Below are positions 1 to 39,436 of a stretch of 40,804 nt of DNA, one piece after another (position 1 is the stretch's first letter; each line of letters begins with the position of its first letter). A program made the translations under genes and the position numbers. The DNA comes from a virus. Lineage: Duplodnaviria > Heunggongvirae > Uroviricota > Caudoviricetes. The stretch is taken from positions 1-40,804 of the IMG/VR virus record IMGVR_UViG_2687453522_000003, one strand, 5' to 3'. The notes below the pieces were generated by a model. The model was not told where the DNA came from, did no database searches, and saw only the letters and a program-made list of their open reading frames with translations.

Positions 1-981
1 TTAGAAAGGAATATCATCGTTCTTAACGGCATCATCAGAGATGAGAGCACCTGTTGGCAGAGGTACATTACTTACAGTATATAAATTAAGAATGTCTTCC
101 CGGTCCATAAATATTATCTGGCTTCTTTTGCTGGCATCAAGTTTCCCGCCCAGCCAGTTCCTCGCCTGTTTAGTAATTTCTCCGCCAGCAACGATAAAGG
201 CATGATCTACCAGCACCTTTCTATTTGTTTCTGGGTCAAATATTTCATGGCCAAGCATCATCAGTACCTGGTTGAAGATTTCTGCCACGTTTGAATTCGT
301 AGATTTGCTGGCACCGGACGCATCCAACTTACCTTTTTTTGCCTGAATGCCGAAATAAAGAACATGCTGAGTTGGCAGTGTGAACTTCATCCAGATGTCT
401 TTCCCGTATTCCAGCGCTTTATCTTTATGTCCCACTGCTGTTATCCGGTGAAAACCAAGTTGCCGGAATAAAGGAAGGAGAATATCTTCTATTAACTCAT
501 CTTCTGAGCAGGTATCAAGAAACGCGGTCAGTAACCTTCTGCATTCTACTTCGTGAGGCGTTAAGGGCCGATGAGGGTTATTACTGACTGAAACCGTTTT
601 GGTATCGGTATGGCGTATATACAAAAGGCGATCGTCACCATAGAATGCCTCATAGCCTTCCCGCATCAAAGGCTTGTTCAGTTCTTCAAGCGCCTTTAAT
701 CTTCCTGGATCGTCATCCATTGCATCTTCTTTTAACATTAAAGTTCTGAGCACATGAACAAACCTTTCCGGCAAAGTATGTGGCTTTGACTGTGGCTCAT
801 AAAGAAGTTCTTCAAGCCTCTGGGCCGTCCATTTCCACCGAGTGGATCCGTCATGAGTAACATCCATGCCGCAGTCCTGGAAAAATTCAGTGATGTGACT
901 GCTTGAACGATACAGAAATGCCTTATTATCTCCTATGATACATTCCGCGAGAGCCTTAAGGTTCTTGTCCTTAAATTTCAT
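1..981 (-). CDS. Hypothetical protein (326 aa), possible nuclease-like C-terminal region
   Basis: Complete ORF in track, stop codon at 1-3; no family recognised with certainty; segment GKDIWMKF...HVLYFGIQAKKGK loosely resembles a D...(E/Q)xK restriction-endonuclease-type motif (by eye only). Confidence 0.5.
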   Translation of the reverse strand: MKFKDKNLKALAECIIGDNKAFLYRSSSHITEFFQDCGMDVTHDGSTRWKWTAQRLEELLYEPQSKPHTLPERFVHVLRTLMLKEDAMDDDPGRLKALEELNKPLMREGYEAFYGDDRLLYIRHTDTKTVSVSNNPHRPLTPHEVECRRLLTAFLDTCSEDELIEDILLPLFRQLGFHRITAVGHKDKALEYGKDIWMKFTLPTQHVLYFGIQAKKGKLDASGASKSTNSNVAEIFNQVLMMLGHEIFDPETNRKVLVDHAFIVAGGEITKQARNWLGGKLDASKRSQIIFMDREDILNLYTVSNVPLPTGALISDDAVKNDDIPF

Positions 982-1454
982 GTGTAATAATCTCCCCCTC
1001 GTTTAGAATATAGAATTAATTGCAGGCACCGATTGTTCGGGTGACTGTTAGCGATTCACTACTCATTACCACTTATTCATACAAAGAAACACCCGAGGCA
1101 GTTGTTGGACAGGTATAAGTGGCGGAACCTTCATACATTAAGTGTCTCCCCATCATAATGGTGTCAAAACGTCACGGCAACAGGATTAACAAACTCCCGT
1201 TAAGCAGGCTTGAACCGACGCGCTTTTATCATTTCCTGAGAACAGAAAAAATCAAGTGCCCCTTTATCTGTTGAACAACACTGATAGTTGTTAAATACTT
1301 CCGCTTATGGCACATAGCAGTCCTAGAGACACTGGCGTAAAGCCATGGAGGATCGGTGGGAGGAGACGCTAATCCTTTCATACAAAAAATATGTAAAATC
1401 AATAACGGCTGTAAATCATTCAATACTCGCCCTATCGGAAGTTCACCAGCCAAC

Positions 1455-1492
1455 CGCAGCACGTTCTTGCATACGACGTGGCTGCGGTTTCA
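1455..1492. repeat. Hairpin repeat copy A (AACCGCAGCACG-TTCTTGCATACGACGTG-GCTGCGGTTTCA)
   Basis: Near-identical to 5620..5662 in direct orientation; about 13-bp stem with one bulge. Confidence 0.7.
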
Positions 1493-1641
1493 ACTCCCGC
1501 AAGCTCCACCAATCATGATTGAACGGTGTAAGGACAACACCAACGAAAACAGGAAGTTAGCAGTCTCAGCAGGACACCGACCAGACGGTGAGGAGACAAA
1601 AAAGGATACGCAAAGGAGCCGCGGCTCTCGAGTGACACAAA

Positions 1642-1669
1642 AGCCCGCTTATGCGGGCTTTTTGTTTTT
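1642..1669 (+). terminator. Rho-independent terminator-like hairpin (AGCCCGC-TTAT-GCGGGCT followed by TTTTTGTTTTT)
   Basis: GC stem plus T-tract read directly; preceded by a second palindrome GAGCCGCGGCTC. Confidence 0.6.
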
Positions 1670-1739
1670 CCCTTAAGTTCCTAGCCGCTTATCTATAACT
1701 ATGGAAAAATGTTAACCCTGACTGTATGTTAACAAAGGG

Positions 1740-2954
1740 ATGTATATGTCGGTTTTTCATAACTGGCTGCTTGATATCGCAAGCGGGAATTACTTTATCT
1801 ACATCAAACGCCTTTCTGCAAACGACACAGGCGCAACAGGTGGCCATCAGGTCGGACTTTATATCCCCTCAAATATCGTTGAAAAGCTTTTTCCATCTAT
1901 CAATCATACTCGCGAACTGAACCCTTCAGTCTTCCTTACTGCGCATGTATCATCCCATGATTGCCCTGATACCCAAGCACGCGCAATTTATTACAACAAC
2001 CGTTATTTTGGTAAGACCCGAAACGAAAAAAGAATTACGCGCTGGGGGAGAGGAAGTCCATTACAGAACCCTGAAAATACAGGAGCCCTCACAATTCTTG
2101 CTTTCAGGTTAAACGAACAGAACACTGACTGTTCCGAGGTAGATATATGGGTCTGCGTCAATCCCGATGAAGAGGATCTCATCGAGTCTGCTATTGGCGA
2201 AATCATACCTGGAACCCTAATTTTCGGCCCAGCCGGACAAATTTTGGGCGGATTGTCTCTTCAGCAAACTCCAGTAAATCATAAATATGTTATTCCTGAA
2301 GACTGGAAGAAGCGTTTTCCTTCTGGAAACGAAATTATTCAATATGCTGCTGGCCATTATGCTAAAAACTCCAAGGATCCAGATGAGCAACTGATTGACC
2401 GTCGGCGTGTCGAGTATGATATTTTTCTACTCGTCGAGGAATTACATGTTCTTGATATTATTAAGAAAGGATTCGATTCTGTAGATGAGTTTATTGCATT
2501 AGCCAACTCTGTCAGTAATCGACGTAAATCAAGGGCAGGTAAATCACTTGAACTTCACCTAGAGAAGCTTTTTATCGAGCACGGACTACGGCATTTCTCC
2601 ACTCAGGCAGTTACTGAAGGTAATAAAAAACCAGATTTCCTGTTTCCTTCAGCAGAGGCATATCATAACGCTGAATTTCCTGTAGAAAACTTACGTATGC
2701 TGGCAGTAAAGACCACCTGCAAAGATCGCTGGCGTCAGATACTGAATGAAGCAGATAAAATCCATCAGGTACATTTATTTACACTGCAAGAAGGTGTTTC
2801 TTCAGCACAATACCGAGAAATGAAAGATGCGGGTGTCAGACTCGTTGTACCATCAACTTTACATAAAAAATACCCAGAAGCAGTTAGAGAAGAATTAATA
2901 ACGCTCGGAGCATTCATTACTGAGCTGATAGAACTTTACACTGAACTATCATAG
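1740..2954 (+). CDS. Type II restriction endonuclease, EcoRII-like (predicted CCWGG specificity)
   Basis: 404-aa ORF convergent with a Dcm/M.EcoRII-family methyltransferase; length and arrangement match the EcoRII system as I recall it; second ATG at 1746 has better spacing to the AAGGG ribosome-binding site. Confidence 0.7.
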   Translation: MYMSVFHNWLLDIASGNYFIYIKRLSANDTGATGGHQVGLYIPSNIVEKLFPSINHTRELNPSVFLTAHVSSHDCPDTQARAIYYNNRYFGKTRNEKRITRWGRGSPLQNPENTGALTILAFRLNEQNTDCSEVDIWVCVNPDEEDLIESAIGEIIPGTLIFGPAGQILGGLSLQQTPVNHKYVIPEDWKKRFPSGNEIIQYAAGHYAKNSKDPDEQLIDRRRVEYDIFLLVEELHVLDIIKKGFDSVDEFIALANSVSNRRKSRAGKSLELHLEKLFIEHGLRHFSTQAVTEGNKKPDFLFPSAEAYHNAEFPVENLRMLAVKTTCKDRWRQILNEADKIHQVHLFTLQEGVSSAQYREMKDAGVRLVVPSTLHKKYPEAVREELITLGAFITELIELYTELS

Positions 2955-2988
2955 GCTGACTCCCGGCTTAAAAGGCCGGGAGGTGTTC

Positions 2989-4422
2989 TCAAGGCTGCCC
3001 AGTCTTACCAGCATCAGCAGAAACAGCTTTGAGGATATAGGGTTCCAGAAGTCTGGCAACGGCTTCAAATACTGGCACCACAACGGAGTTACCGAACTGC
3101 CGATATGACTGAGTATCTGAAACCGGAATACGGAATGGTTTCCCTCCAGGTTTTTCAAACCCCATAAGGCGTGCGCACTCTCGGGGAGTCAGCCTGCGTG
3201 GTCGACGAGCCTGGTTACTCTCATTCATAAAGTCAGCCTCTCCCGTTGCCATATCCCAACCACGATCAATAAGAATTTCTGATCCGTCTTTGTGATATCT
3301 GGCAGAAAGTGTGCGTGCAATGCTTTCCTTATTCTCAGGATTGACCAACCCAAAGCCAAAACCATTCCCCTTGGCTGCATGCTTTTTGGCGTAGTTATAA
3401 AGGTACTCCCATAGTTTTGGCGTAAGTATATATTTACTGTCGACTACAGGCTCCAGCAATTCACCAAATGATGGGCGGTGTTCCGGATAAAAACGACTGA
3501 TATCACGCAAGGTAAACCCCTTGTGAATATTCAGATCTCGTCTAAATCCGACCAGAACAATGCGTTCACGATGCTGAGGCAAAAAATGCTTCCCATCGAT
3601 AATCTTTGGATCGTTTTTTCCCATTTCTGCAGCATCGGCAACTTCGTAGCCCAGCTCGTCAAGGGTCTCCATAATGACTTTGAAAGTTTTACCCTTATCA
3701 TGGCTCTTCAGATTTTTGACATTTTCCAGCACAAAAATTGCCGGTTTTTTTGCTCGTATAATACGTGCCACGTCAAAAAAAAGTGTTCCTTGTGCTTCAC
3801 ATTCAAAACCATGCGCACGACCAAGTGAGTTTTTCTTACTAACACCAGCAAGGCTAAATGGCTGGCACGGGAACCCCGCAAGAAGCACATCATGATCCGG
3901 CACATGCTCATCAATATATGCATAAGCATCCGTTTCCAATATATCGGTTTTATCACTCAGCGTGACTTCCCGAATATCGAGATTGAATTTATGCACCTGT
4001 TCATCGTTAAACCAGTTGGCCTTGTATGTACGCACAGCATCTTTATTCCATTCACTGGTAAAAACACACTGGCCTCCAATGGCCTCAAAACCTTTCCGTA
4101 TCCCTCCAATTCCAGCAAATAAGTCAATGAAGCGGAAAGCATATTCCGGATGGTTTGCAGGTGGTTCTGGTAGCATCTTACGCAGAAGAGACTCTTCTAC
4201 TGAAGTCAACGATTTTGGTAAACACTTGCCATTAATCCAGCGGTTAATGGTTTCACGGCTCCACTCATTTCTTCCGACTTTTCTCAGTAATTCAGCCACA
4301 TACTTCTGATCATAGATTTCCAGCACTTTCTCGATAAGCTTTTTATCATTTTCCTGTCGCAGCTTTTCTTCCGCCTCGGCTTCCTTCAGCAGATGCTGTG
4401 CCAACACTTCAAATTCAGACAT
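2989..4422 (-). CDS. DNA-cytosine C5 methyltransferase, Dcm/M.EcoRII family
   Basis: Motifs FAGIGG (motif I), FPCQPFS (catalytic Cys), ENVKNL, QFGNSV; near-colinear with E. coli Dcm from memory; start set at internal ATG (MSEFEV...) preceded by GGAGGA, giving 477 aa; the track ORF extends to 4464. Confidence 0.9.
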
Positions 4423-4729
4423 AATTCCTCCAAGGGGTCTAATGGGTGAAACTTTATCACTCATTTAACCCAGAAGGAAATGTTTTATCTGGATATTTAA
4501 ACAGTGACTGCAACGTAATCTAGCACTGGTGATGCTTTGTTAGGCATAGAGAATCATTCTATATACGACTAATGACAGAAAAACAGCAGACAAGTAGTTT
4601 GTTCATAAATTAACGCATACTACGTGCCTACGGTTTTCGAGACCGGTCCAATCATCAAACGAAACATAAAATTAGCTCACATTATGAGGAAAAGTATCTT
4701 TTTTGTACTATGTAAATTCAAAGGCTTAG

Positions 4730-5551
<822 letters not shown>

Positions 5552-5619
5552 GAAAAAAAGGAGCTATGTCCCCGGTCCGTTACTCACCTAATTTTTGAGT
5601 CTTTAAGTGATAAGCATAA

Positions 5620-5662
5620 ACCGCAGCACGATCTTCTTGCATACGACGTGCTACGGTTTCAT
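5620..5662. repeat. Hairpin repeat copy B, immediately 3' of the invertase gene (probable invertase terminator)
   Basis: AAACCGCAGCACGATCTTCTTGCATACGACGTGCTACGGTTTCA; direct repeat of 1455..1492. Confidence 0.7.
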
Positions 5663-6213
5663 TTATCTCCGACCGGAAACTTCTTATACAGTGTCGATAT
5701 ACCAACATCATAGATGATCGCCACCTTCTGGCAAGGAACGCCTGATGCAATTAATCGTCCGGCCTGCTCCCATTGTTCTGGTGTAAGTTTGGGGCGACGT
5801 CCACCAATTCGTCCCTGTGCGCGAGCTGCTTCCAGTCCAGCTTTTGTTCGTTCAACAATCAGTTCACGCTCCATTTCAGCCAGGGCACCCATCACATGAA
5901 AGAAAAAGCGCCCCATTGGGGTACTGGTATCAATTGAATCCGTCAGACTACGAAAGTTGATGCCTCGTTCACGCAACTCCTCCAGCAGCACGACAAGATG
6001 CCGCATACTGCGCCCCAGTCGGTCCAGTTTCCAGACCACCAGCGTGTCACCTGCCGATAATGTCCTGAGCAGCTTTTTCAGTCCTGGTCTGTCGGACTTT
6101 GTACCGCTTATCTTGTCTTCAAAAATCAGCTCGCATCCTGCACAGTTCAACGCATTACGTTGTAGATCGGTGTTCTGGTCATTTGTTGATACGCGAACAT
6201 AGCCAATAAGCAT
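5659..6213 (-). CDS. Serine DNA invertase (Pin/Gin/Hin/Cin family)
   Basis: MLIGYVRVSTNDQ... catalytic-serine N-terminus and C-terminal HTH; start set at the internal ATG preceded by AGGAGG, giving 184 aa; lies next to the tail-fibre segment. Confidence 0.9.
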   Translation of the reverse strand: MLIGYVRVSTNDQNTDLQRNALNCAGCELIFEDKISGTKSDRPGLKKLLRTLSAGDTLVVWKLDRLGRSMRHLVVLLEELRERGINFRSLTDSIDTSTPMGRFFFHVMGALAEMERELIVERTKAGLEAARAQGRIGGRRPKLTPEQWEQAGRLIASGVPCQKVAIIYDVGISTLYKKFPVGDK

Positions 6214-32807: not shown

Positions 32808-33745
32808 CCCCTGAATCCTGCCGGGATCTGGCTGTAGTCCACGTTGTCGTAACTGGCTTTGAAGTACGGGTCTTCACGTTTTTCTGTGTGCGTGCTGACG
32901 GACGGCGATAAGCGCAGGGAAAGCTCATCCCATTTTTCCCGCAACTTCGACGGGCTGAGCACGTTACGGCACCAGAACGGATCGCGGCTGACGCGGCTGT
33001 ACATCTCGCAGATTTGTTTGTGAGTACGACCATCCTGCACACACATCAGGCGAATTTCGTTTGCCCAGGCTGTCCAGTTCGGTTCTTTGGGACGAACCAC
33101 CTCGCCGTCACATTCGGCGGCCTGCTCGTACAGGGCAATGATTTTTTTCCAGAGCCACTGTGCGCAGGTCAAATCATCCTGCGTTCCCCACTGGCGCTTT
33201 TTAGGGCTGAATACAACCGCATCAGGATGGCGAGTTAAAAAATCCTGTTCAGCCGTCTGCGTGTCCGGTTGCGAAGCGTCCGGACGAGAAGGTTTTTTAT
33301 CTGACGGATCATGTTTTGATTTTACTGACGGATCCCCGCCAGATTCTGACGGGTGAAAACCCGCTTTTTTGCCAGATTTCGACGCATCAAATTTTGACGG
33401 GTCAGATTTTGATGCGTCAGATTTTGACGGGTCAGAATCTGACAGTTGAGAAAAAGCCGCAACCTGAAGCTTCGCAACGTTAAGCTGATAAACATTCGAC
33501 GCATTGCGGTTACCCTGGCGACGCGCCTTACGCGTTAACCAGCCTTCTGCTTCCAGCCGTGCGATAGCCGTTCTGACGGTACTCATCCCCGCGCCAATCT
33601 GGCGGGCAATGGTTTCAATTGATGGCCAGCACACACCTTCGTCATTACTGAAATCAGCCAGGCGTGCCATAATTGCCACGCTGGATAATTTCATGCCTGA
33701 TGCAGCGCAACCATCCCATACATAGCCGGTTAATTTAGTGCTCAT
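32804..33745 (-). CDS. Replication initiator, O-like (winged-helix N-terminus, repeat-encoded linker)
   Basis: HTH-like N-terminus, internal SKSD/SKFD tandem peptide repeats encoded by DNA iterons, position after cro/cII. Confidence 0.7.
   Translation of the reverse strand: MSTKLTGYVWDGCAASGMKLSSVAIMARLADFSNDEGVCWPSIETIARQIGAGMSTVRTAIARLEAEGWLTRKARRQGNRNASNVYQLNVAKLQVAAFSQLSDSDPSKSDASKSDPSKFDASKSGKKAGFHPSESGGDPSVKSKHDPSDKKPSRPDASQPDTQTAEQDFLTRHPDAVVFSPKKRQWGTQDDLTCAQWLWKKIIALYEQAAECDGEVVRPKEPNWTAWANEIRLMCVQDGRTHKQICEMYSRVSRDPFWCRNVLSPSKLREKWDELSLRLSPSVSTHTEKREDPYFKASYDNVDYSQIPAGFRG
33296..33448. repeat. Iteron array (probable replication origin) inside the O-like gene
   Basis: Repeated CAGATTTTGACGGGT-type units, four to five at 15-bp period from 33374 to 33448 plus more irregular copies from 33296. 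Confidence 0.65.
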
Positions 33746-37956: not shown

Positions 37957-38306
37957 TGGAGCCATACAGCCTCACACTCGATGAGGCCTGTCATTTTCTC
38001 AAGATATCCAGACCGACTGCCATTAACTGGATACGCACAGGGCGTCTTCAGGCAACACGCAAAGATCCCACTAAGAATAAATCTCCTTACCTCACAACAC
38101 GACAAGCCTGCATTGCGGCTCTTCAGTCTCCGCTGCATACTGTCCAGGTGAGCGCGGGTGATGGCATAACAGAGGAAAGAAAATGTCACTCTTCCGCAGA
38201 GGTGAAATATGGTACGCCAGTTTCACATTGCCGAACGGTAAAAGATTTAAACAGTCTCTTGGAACAAAGGACAAAAGGCAGGCGACAGAACTCCATGACA
38301 AGCTAA
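37956..38306 (+). CDS. xis: Excisionase (P22 Xis-like)
   Basis: 116 aa from the ATG at 37956, overlaps the int start in another frame. Confidence 0.7.
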
Positions 38307-39346
38307 AGGCTGAAGCATGGCGGGTCAGCAAACTTGGTGAAATACCTGATATAACGTTCGAGGAAGCGTGTGTCAGGTGGCTTGAAGAGAAAGCACATAA
38401 AAAATCACTGGACGATGACAAAAGCCGGATCGGATTCTGGCTTCAACATTTCGCAGGAATGCAACTAAGAGACATTACTGAATCAAAAATTTATTCAGCA
38501 ATGCAGAAAATGACGAACCGGCGTCATGAGGAAAACTGGAGACTCAGGGCAGAAGCATGCAGAAAAAAAGGGAAACCTGTTCCAGAATACACGCCAAAAC
38601 CAGCGTCCGTTGCAACGAAGGCTACGCATCTTTCATTTATAAAGGCCCTACTAAGAGCCGCAGAGCGTGAATGGAAAATGCTGGATAAGGCACCAATTAT
38701 TAAAGTGCCTCAACCAAAGAATAAACGGATCCGCTGGCTGGAGCCCCATGAAGCACAAAGGCTGATTGATGAATGTCCGGAGCCATTAAAGTCTGTTGTT
38801 GAATTTGCACTGGCAACAGGCTTAAGACGCTCGAACATCATCAACCTTGAATGGCAACAAATAGACATGCAGCGCCGGGTGGCATGGATAAACCCGGAAG
38901 AGAGTAAATCAAACCGCGCAATTGGCGTTGCGCTGAATGATACTGCATGTCGCGTTTTGAAAAAACAAATCGGGAATCATCACCGTTGGGTATTTGTGTA
39001 CAAGGAAAGCTGTACCAAACCAGACGGAACGAAAGCGCCAACAGTAAGGAAGATGCGGTATGACGCAAACACAGCCTGGAAAGCGGCGCTGAGACGGGCT
39101 GGTATTGATGATTTCAGATTTCACGACTTGAGACACACCTGGGCAAGTTGGCTGGTTCAAGCCGGAGTCCCGTTGTCAGTGTTACAGGAAATGGGAGGCT
39201 GGGAGTCTATCGAAATGGTTCGTCGATATGCTCACCTTGCACCTAATCACCTTACCGAACACGCACGGCAAATAGACTCGATCCTGAACCCATCGGTCCC
39301 AAATTTGTCCCAGTCAAAAAATAAGGAAGGTACTAATGATGTGTAA
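38183..39346 (+). CDS. int: Tyrosine integrase, P22/Sf6-type
   Basis: 387 aa; N-terminus [34 protein letters not shown] matches P22 Int as I recall it; catalytic R...HDLRHT...Y region near the C-terminus. Confidence 0.9.
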
Positions 39347-39360
39347 CTTATTGATTTAAA

Positions 39361-39436
39361 TGGTGCCGATAATAGGAGTCGAACCTACGACCTTCGCATT
39401 ACGAATGCGCTGCTCTACCAACTGAGCTATATCGGC
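39361..39436 (-). tRNA. thrW: tRNA-Thr (anticodon CGU), thrW-type; prophage attachment site at its 3' end
   Basis: Reverse complement reads GCCGATATAGCTCAGTTGGTAGAGCAGCGCATTCGTAATGCGAAGGTCGTAGGTTCGACTCCTATTATCGGCACCA. Confidence 0.9.

Follow-up and report, generated by a model that had tools for sequence, protein, structure and literature searches.

The window, the whole stretch of 40,804 nucleotides that was analysed (IMG/VR record IMGVR_UViG_2687453522_000003), covers a prophage of Escherichia coli, roughly 40 kb in size, located at the tRNA gene thrW and bounded by 49 bp thrW repeats. It carries a pair of convergent genes that appear to encode a restriction endonuclease (R) and a cytosine methyltransferase (M), arranged among the following features:

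1..981, minus strand: solitary 326 aa gene for a putative PD-(D/E)xK nuclease with a D195/Q213/K215-type motif, outside the R-M pair, between the prophage end and the cassette described below
1297..1512, plus strand: left cassette edge, a relic similar to the tmRNA (ssrA) 3' end, placed by homology-block starts and an ssrA core match
1639..1672, plus strand: strong hairpin with a T-run, similar to an intrinsic terminator, 67 bp before the R start (terminator scan)
1740..2954, plus strand: R gene, EcoRII-type (type IIE) restriction endonuclease, 404 aa (Pfam, PDB 1NA6 match)
2955..2988, no strand assigned: convergent spacer, 34 bp between the stop codons, holding a hairpin at 2960-2982
2989..4422, minus strand: M gene, M.EcoRII/Dcm-type C5-cytosine methyltransferase, 477 aa (Pfam, NCBIfam, plasmid and K-12 identity)
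4423..4510, minus strand: M upstream region, presumed promoter and autoregulatory site, conserved with plasmid EcoRII
4826..5551, plus strand: PD-T4-3/CMoRE, GIY-YIG type IV nuclease (PADLOC, PDB 9U75)
5619..5662, no strand assigned: right cassette edge, where the hairpin sequence of 1451-1495 recurs as an imperfect direct repeat (D11 and D15; alignment)
5659..6213, minus strand: pin-type serine invertase, end of the tail-fibre module (Pfam Resolvase and HTH_7; RefSeq pinE)
38228..39346, plus strand: prophage tyrosine integrase, marking the right prophage end (RefSeq annotation of a near-identical record)
39358..39406, no strand assigned: 49 bp att repeat, the 3' part of thrW (ARAGORN, Rfam, exact second copy)
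39361-39436, minus strand: tRNA-Thr(CGT), thrW (ARAGORN, Rfam)

On the evidence of its sequence the R protein is a full-length EcoRII endonuclease, with cleavage activity and CCWGG specificity predicted by homology. The two-domain layout of the EcoRII class, an N-terminal effector-binding and a C-terminal catalytic domain, is present in the form of EcoRII-N (PF09217, residues 18-165, E = 4e-61) and EcoRII-C (PF09019, residues 229-393, E = 2e-71), and the crystal structure of R.EcoRII (PDB 1NA6) is matched end to end, over residues 1-403 (E = 1e-241). The catalytic PD-(D/E)XK residues of EcoRII, which we take to be E271, D299, K324 and E337, are all identical between R and 1NA6 in an ungapped alignment. 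R aligns with a plasmid copy without gaps at 86% amino acid identity, its identity to the crystallised enzyme is likewise about 86%, and its omega of 0.05 at a dS of about 1.6 indicates strong purifying selection. RefSeq places the start at 1746 rather than at the 1740 of the open reading frame. Candidate R promoters upstream match at consensus level only, no better than shuffled sequence; the terminator-like hairpin at 1639-1672 has a fold energy of -22.3 kcal/mol (z = -5.5).

M is read here from the ATG at 4422, which is preceded by GGAGG and coincides with the RefSeq start, rather than from an in-frame upstream ATG at 4464 that would extend the frame to 491 aa (2989-4464, minus strand). The 477 aa product matches DNA_methylase (PF00145, E = 4e-78), DNA_meth_N (PF18284, E = 1.5e-26), the N-terminal extension of the autoregulating class, and NCBIfam PRK10458 (926 bits). 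C5-methyltransferase motifs I (FAGIGG), IV (PCQ), VI (ENV), VIII (QxRxR), IX and X are present, GNSVVVPV among them, and the specificity-carrying region between motifs VIII and IX is nearly the same as in the plasmid M.EcoRII-type enzyme. Identity is 91% to the latter, without gaps, and 68% to K-12 Dcm, and from this identity across the variable region M is predicted to methylate the inner C of CCWGG. Its omega is 0.035 at the same dS of about 1.6, again indicating strong purifying selection. The ~88 bp immediately 5' of the M start codon are nearly identical to the plasmid copy, and farther upstream the similarity ends. M.EcoRII is reported to repress its own promoter, with autorepression depending on methylated substrate (PMC12707154).

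The spacer hairpin consists of CTCCCGGC (2960-2967), a 7 nt loop and GCCGGGAG (2975-2982), forming an 8 bp stem. Folded in isolation it is only modestly more stable than shuffles on either strand (z about -1.9). A core of 6-7 bp is kept in five EcoRII-family loci despite diverged flanks, and the Pantoea copy carries one compensatory change (C-G to A-T); this single pair is not significant as covariation, being reached in 103 of 500 shuffles of the five sequences. The hairpin was also considered as a canonical intrinsic terminator and rejected, since it has no T-run and was not called in the terminator scan. The original prediction had described a 404 aa endonuclease candidate and a 477 aa Dcm-family C5 methyltransferase, convergent and separated by a 34 bp hairpin, as an EcoRII-like CCWGG pair; all of its sequence statements hold, the full-length alignment to 1NA6 keeps both domains and the catalytic residues, and the Pfam domains and plasmid identities agree with the family assignment.

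The locus is an ordinary addition to the known EcoRII-type restriction-modification systems. Plasmid EcoRII likewise pairs a 404 aa two-domain type IIE endonuclease with a 477 aa C5-methyltransferase bearing an N-terminal regulatory domain, the genes convergent across a 33-34 bp spacer with the conserved hairpin, the region upstream of M conserved and vsr unlinked. It differs in that amino acid identities of 86% (R) and 91% (M) are accompanied by only 78-81% nucleotide identity, at the dS given above, and in that the allele described here resides in prophages, where CMoRE and ssrA-like repeats are linked to it. The prophage allele is a lineage that separated long ago, not a recent plasmid-to-phage transfer. 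With the chromosomal dcm-vsr locus of E. coli it shares an M of the same subfamily (PRK10458), with the same N-terminal domain and presumably the same CCWGG target, whereas dcm encodes an orphan methyltransferase and overlaps vsr at its 3' end, and the prophage M has a cognate endonuclease, no vsr, and a 3' end that faces R across 34 bp.

That the pair is prophage cargo, as had been proposed, is borne out by its position inside an att-bounded prophage and inside a closed 43.7 kb circular phage genome (NZ_CP081794.1). No second thrW att copy was found within the window; an exact copy lies at L001:18058-18106, some 543 bp beyond the left end of the window, and further copies occur in loci L003, L009, L010 and L011. 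A full phage gene set lies between the two thrW repeats, and the R-M pair occupies an att-proximal 'moron' slot with the tail-fibre/invertase module on one side and the prophage end on the other. A search for inverted repeats bounding a pin-invertible segment gave nothing clear under the settings used. The att-proximal slot is variable, holding AbiTii with DUF6650, an AraC-family gene, an acyltransferase or the 326 aa gene.

R and M are part of a 4.3 kb cassette of low GC content (window 1297-5660; 43%, against 51% for the remaining prophage) that also encodes PD-T4-3/CMoRE. On its left side, homology blocks with other prophages begin at 1297 or 1384, and the relic contains a hairpin (1452-1495) as well as a 29 bp ssrA 3' core (1484-1512) with 27 of 29 matches to K-12 ssrA; in the record of phage LLS the homologous stretch is annotated 'tmRNA pseudogene / attP'. 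The edge thus resembles ssrA by its 29 bp core match and by that annotation, while Rfam and ARAGORN return no tmRNA or other family in the region upstream of R, only sub-threshold noise. The right-edge repeat (5619-5662) lies just 3' of pin, and homology blocks to loci L002 and L010 stop at 5659-5661. The CMoRE gene is assigned by PADLOC as PD-T4-3 (E = 2e-128) and is near-identical to PDB 9U75 across 238 residues (E = 2.5e-157). In the window copy of the gene, a 1 nt deletion in the A-run at 5530-5536 shifts the frame close to the 3' end, with loss of the last 20 residues. CMoRE is specific for DNA containing 5hmC or glucosyl-5hmC and neither binds nor cuts 5mC DNA (PMC12923530). As a candidate Vsr substitute this GIY-YIG neighbour was dismissed, because it is CMoRE, an enzyme that binds neither 5mC nor unmodified DNA.

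Of 5,426 complete E. coli genomes, 375 carry the cassette, at 97-100% identity, and it occurs in at least three phage backbones. It occupies the equivalent position in five other thrW prophages, and is also found in the circular phage genome and, in a further strain, beside lambda-like tail genes. Both R and M are intact in L002, L003 and L009, and a related O157 prophage lacks R-M and keeps CMoRE alone. Since IS elements interrupt R (IS100) or sit in the M promoter with R intact (IS1) in some strains, the R-M system is dispensable and sometimes inactivated. Counts of CCWGG in the prophage are model-dependent, with 79 sites observed where base composition predicts about 80, hence no avoidance, and a Markov estimate gives 130; they say nothing about activity either way.

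As the original prediction stated, vsr is unlinked to M. No vsr-like ORF is present in the window, and tblastn with K-12 Vsr against the window and related loci yielded nothing (best E = 0.31). The significance that had been attached to its absence is not supported. Four plasmid EcoRII loci likewise lack a neighbouring vsr, so this is no special feature of the prophage pair. In the near-identical host strain CRE1493 the chromosomal dcm and vsr genes are both intact, and the same holds for 5,358 of the 5,426 complete E. coli genomes (98.7%). Because CCWGG in such a host is already methylated and Vsr already supplied, the elevated 5-methylcytosine deamination burden that had been expected of the lysogen unless its host supplied Vsr is not anticipated, the missing vsr is without consequence, and no new question on 5-methylcytosine mutagenesis is opened. 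The predicted gain of CCWGG restriction is correspondingly narrowed, to DNA arriving without Dcm-type methylation.

We consider it very probable that the locus is a diverged, functional-looking EcoRII R-M allele carried as cargo by a temperate phage at thrW. By homology to EcoRII, the endonuclease would need at least two unmethylated CCWGG sites: the N-terminal effector domain would bind one of them, relieving autoinhibition of the C-terminal PD-(D/E)XK domain, and the freed domain would then cut another copy. M would methylate the inner cytosine of CCWGG and repress its own promoter via its N-terminal domain. In a normal E. coli host every CCWGG would already be methylated by Dcm and the resulting T:G mismatches repaired by Vsr, and with both host enzymes already acting the phage M would be largely redundant and the absence of vsr costless. 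The endonuclease would accordingly restrict only DNA entering without Dcm-type methylation, for example from dcm-negative strains or species, or from a phage replicating too fast for methylation. Hypermodified T-even phages that escape the endonuclease may be covered by CMoRE.

Other readings were weighed against this one. The pair might act mainly as an addiction module, stabilising the prophage by post-segregational killing rather than defending against incoming DNA; EcoRII is an established post-segregational killer (PMC3874152), and a cassette at the very end of the prophage is easily lost by deletion. Chromosomal Dcm, however, attenuates EcoRII killing (PMC3874152), and dcm is present in the host and in the same 98.7% of complete genomes, which leaves addiction workable only in rare dcm-negative hosts. 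The IS1 copy in the M promoter, in a locus that keeps R intact, fits cross-protection by Dcm, and we regard a mainly addictive role as unlikely. It is improbable, too, that the R-M genes are a silent or decaying remnant, presently inactive. The IS insertions in some copies, the frameshift in the neighbouring CMoRE and the absence of a strong promoter call could be taken that way, but both ORFs are full length with intact catalytic motifs, omega stays at 0.035-0.05 over a saturated synonymous distance, and the cassette persists at 97-100% identity in 375 genomes and on several phage backbones.

A drift of specificity away from CCWGG, to a new specificity within the EcoRII fold, appears very improbable. 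Two related enzymes, Ecl18kI and PspGI, recognise other central bases, and the amino acid differences from plasmid EcoRII (14% in R, 9% in M) leave some room for such a change. These substitutions are nevertheless scattered, conservative and free of indels; the M variable region differs at a handful of positions that also vary in isospecific Dcm, and Ecl18kI and PspGI match R only at E of about 1e-4. The suggestion that the genes are part of an adjoining genomic island and not of the phage draws on a second integrase with an HsdM-type island just left in the source genome, on the foreign GC content of the cassette and on its own ssrA-like att relic. A thrW att copy separates the cassette from that island, which lies to its left, and the cassette is found inside the closed circular phage genome and at the same place in the five other thrW prophages; membership in the island is therefore extremely improbable.

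Beyond the identification of the locus as a phage-borne EcoRII allele, a broader and tentative proposal, which we think possible but would not favour, is that the 4.3 kb block is a self-contained, co-adapted defence cassette that may move between unrelated temperate backbones by recombination at its ssrA-like, hairpin-bearing flanking repeats. Its R-M and CMoRE arms would be complementary, and in a species that nearly always has Dcm the former would chiefly keep out DNA originating in dcm-negative lineages or in other genera. The block and the variable slot beside it, with the 326 aa gene, AbiTii and others, would make up a defence hotspot not described before, located in thrW prophages at their att-proximal end. 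Were this so, the EcoRII-type system would cut DNA with unmodified cytosine, and CMoRE would cut 5hmC and glucosyl-5hmC DNA and tolerate the 5mC made by M.

A CCWGG-type R-M system on a temperate phage has a precedent in the Burkholderia P2-like phage KL3, which encodes an EcoRII-C endonuclease, a Vsr and an EcoRII-type methylase (PMC3091744) and was the sole isolated phage with an EcoRII-like endonuclease among the 50,697 phage genomes searched; the prophage lineage described here was absent from that collection. The match of the KL3 endonuclease, however, is confined to the C-terminal domain (residues 171-397, 39% identity), and the three KL3 genes are co-directional with vsr between R and M, whereas the E. 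coli cassette encodes the full two-domain enzyme and no vsr. In its location the cassette resembles the cargo of e14, SfV and lambda-type prophages, which occupies a slot between the tail-fibre/pin module and the attachment site. That of e14 likewise holds a DNA-modification-related nuclease, McrA, downstream of pin; McrA is a solitary type IV enzyme, whereas the thrW prophage slot combines a type II R-M system with a type IV enzyme. Our literature search found no paper on this EcoRII allele of E. coli prophages. The locus shows that an R-M system known from textbooks as plasmid-borne has a long-separated lineage in temperate phages, in ~7% of complete E. coli genomes, and it is a concrete case of type II R-M and a type IV enzyme combined in one phage-borne defence cassette.

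The 326 aa nuclease-like gene that adjoins the cassette is unannotated and very highly conserved, and is more curious than the R-M pair itself.

The window very probably carries a diverged EcoRII restriction-modification (R-M) system as prophage cargo, one that would restrict DNA lacking Dcm-type methylation. Its endonuclease and C5 methyltransferase genes are convergent, with 34 bp between stop codons, and both the coordinates and the hairpin-bearing spacer sequence agree with the original prediction.

Features of the window:
1-981, minus strand: gene for a 326-aa protein, outside the R-M pair
1740-2954, plus strand: endonuclease open reading frame (ORF), 404 aa
2960-2967 (CTCCCGGC), 7 loop bases, 2975-2982 (GCCGGGAG): spacer hairpin
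2989-4464, minus strand: methyltransferase ORF, 491 aa (first ATG) or 477 aa (ATG at 4422)
4826-5551, plus strand: PD-T4-3/CMoRE nuclease, third gene of the block (PADLOC model, E 2e-128)
38228-39346: tyrosine integrase, right end of the window
39361-39436, minus strand: tRNA-Thr(CGT), thrW

The methyltransferase start at 4422 is preceded by GGAGG and is also the RefSeq start. The spacer hairpin folds at approximately -16 to -20 kcal/mol, just ~1.9 sd better than shuffled sequences; lacking a T-run, it does not qualify as a canonical intrinsic terminator. Its core is retained in five EcoRII-family loci despite diverged flanks, and the Pantoea copy contains one compensatory change (C-G to A-T); covariation across the five sequences was not significant. 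A separate hairpin, terminator-like, very stable (z = -5.5) and followed by a T-run, separates the ssrA-like relic from the endonuclease start (1639-1672, plus strand); it has only weak, sub-threshold matches in Rfam, and probably insulates the endonuclease gene against upstream transcription.

The 404-aa protein, proposed as EcoRII-like from the sequence, is an EcoRII endonuclease: it contains the Pfam EcoRII-N and EcoRII-C domains, aligns end to end and without gaps to crystallised R.EcoRII (1NA6; residues 1-403, E 1e-241), and is 86% identical to a plasmid-borne copy. Residues E271, D299, K324 and E337, catalytic according to the EcoRII literature, are identical at all four positions of the alignment to 1NA6. 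The methyltransferase contains DNA_methylase and N-terminal DNA_meth_N domains (Pfam), scores 926 bits against the NCBIfam Dcm subfamily model, and is 91% identical to a plasmid M.EcoRII-type protein and 68% to K-12 Dcm. By homology, the endonuclease would cut unmethylated CCWGG only with a second site in its N-terminal effector domain, while the methyltransferase would modify the inner cytosine of CCWGG and repress its own promoter. M.EcoRII autorepression acts via the N-terminal domain (PMC12707154), with which the ~88 bp conserved 5' of the methyltransferase gene in common with the plasmid EcoRII system fit.

Nucleotide identity to the plasmid genes is just 78-81% and synonymous sites are near saturation (dS ~1.6), which rules out recent import from a plasmid. 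Together with low dN/dS ratios (0.05 for the endonuclease, 0.035 for the methyltransferase), this points to an old EcoRII lineage evolving separately, with both genes under purifying selection; the same ratios make it improbable that the pair is an inactive remnant. Nor is a drift in specificity likely. The region separating motifs VIII and IX determines C5-methyltransferase specificity, and here it is nearly unchanged from the plasmid enzyme, its few differences falling at positions that also vary in isospecific Dcm. Natural disruptions do occur: strain 203740 (NZ_CP025913.1) has IS100 inside the endonuclease gene, at the homologue of window 2262-2268, and two pig isolates (NZ_CP062908.1) have IS1A directly 5' of the methyltransferase gene, in the promoter region (homologue of ~4430-4444), with both ORFs intact.

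Across the two stretches compared, the window and E. coli CRE1493 (NZ_CP019071.1, here L001) share 99.9-100% identity. The right end of the window also contains proA, and a 49-bp repeat comprising the 3' part of thrW (39358-39406) recurs exactly at L001:18058-18106, ~543 bp left of window position 1. Because the genes enclosed by these copies make up a full temperate phage (repressor/cro, replication, Q, lysis, P27-type terminase, HK97-type head, Mu-like contractile tail and baseplate, tail fibres, pin invertase), the R-M pair lies within an att-bounded prophage of ~40 kb. The same block recurs at 98% identity in NZ_CP081794.1, a closed circular 43.7-kb record that comprises an entire phage genome and encodes a different integrase. 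The pair is thus prophage cargo, as had been proposed, and is unlikely to belong to a neighbouring island. The invertase/tail-fibre module lies on one side and the prophage end on the other, a well-known type of cargo slot; it is occupied here by one of the best-known R-M families, represented by a diverged allele in a new vehicle. Directly beyond the left att copy, L001:12492-17897 contains a second integrase-bearing island encoding an HsdM-family methyltransferase, a zinc-ribbon/ORC-CDC6-type ATPase and one hypothetical protein; this is apparently a tandem insertion at thrW and a further candidate for a defence locus. Within the prophage helix-turn-helix replication gene, four tandem 15-bp repeats (33373-33447, CAGATTTTGACGGGT-like) resemble origin iterons such as those in lambda gene O.

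Searches found no vsr in the window, as anticipated, and none in the circular phage or beside the plasmid EcoRII genes; its absence is therefore normal for EcoRII systems and not peculiar to this copy. Phage-borne CCWGG systems are able to carry the gene: unlike the cassette here, the Burkholderia phage KL3 module has vsr between its endonuclease and methyltransferase genes (PMC3091744). The original prediction was of an elevated 5-methylcytosine deamination burden in the lysogen unless the host supplied Vsr; no such burden is expected here, since chromosomal dcm and vsr are intact in CRE1493 and the pair is present in 5,358 of 5,426 complete E. coli genomes. With its CCWGG sites methylated and Vsr provided beforehand by the host, the lysogen should acquire no new class of 5-methylcytosine site and no unrepaired mismatch load.

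This background also makes it doubtful that the system serves mainly as an addiction module. Post-segregational killing by EcoRII is reportedly weakened by Dcm (PMC3874152), so that addiction is expected to be blunted in a dcm-positive host, and IS1 in the methyltransferase promoter is tolerated alongside an intact endonuclease, which fits host protection by chromosomal Dcm. Under the favoured reading, restriction of DNA without Dcm-type methylation, the phage methyltransferase would be redundant in dcm-positive hosts, and in the rare dcm-negative ones would make carriage of the endonuclease safe for the phage.

The block has common limits in every case (left 1297 or 1384, right 5659-5661) and a GC content of 43%, versus 51% in the remaining prophage; in strain 203740 it adjoins lambda-like J/lom/stf/tfa tail genes. 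An imperfect, hairpin-forming direct repeat of ~45 bp (1451-1495 and 5619-5662) brackets the R-M and CMoRE genes, its two copies falling precisely at the points where homology with other phage backbones starts and stops. The left copy is continued by 29 bp that match the ssrA 3' end (1484-1512; 27/29 here, 29/29 in another thrW prophage), and in phage LLS the corresponding stretch bears the annotation tmRNA pseudogene/attP. These features suggest that the block may derive from an ssrA-targeted element, or from one end of a phage that integrated at ssrA, and that it may now move via recombination at the ~45-bp repeats. At least 80% of window 1400-4800 was found in 375 of the 5,426 E. coli genomes. 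Among 50,697 deposited phage genomes, EcoRII-like endonucleases occurred in no coliphage, matching only KL3, whose enzyme has the C-terminal domain alone (39% identity), and two faecal contigs.

The CMoRE product is near-identical to PDB 9U75 (238 residues, E 2.5e-157), a type IV GIY-YIG nuclease that binds and degrades 5hmC and glucosyl-5hmC DNA and spares unmodified and 5mC DNA (PMC12923530). It is therefore compatible with the adjoining C5 methyltransferase, and would cover T-even phages that escape the type II enzyme. CMoRE occurs in 815 genomes, more than have the R-M pair, and a related O157:H7 prophage has CMoRE without it; the R-M pair is thus a separable sub-module. The most novel proposal, tentative and rather unlikely, is that the R-M pair and CMoRE form a co-adapted defence cassette that is bounded by repeats and hops from one phage backbone to another. 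In the window, an A-run (5530-5536) is A7 in place of A8, a frameshift replacing the last 20 CMoRE residues with YQMN that may be a homopolymer sequencing error or a real variant.

The most curious nearby item is the 326-aa gene. Its product matched nothing in Pfam, PADLOC, NCBIfam, PHROGs or PDB sequences and has thousands of homologues, the best 120 of which are at least 70% identical, nearly all of the same length, and derive from Enterobacterales, Vibrio, Verrucomicrobia, Cyanobacteria and Omnitrophica. The gene is solitary and lies within variable islands.
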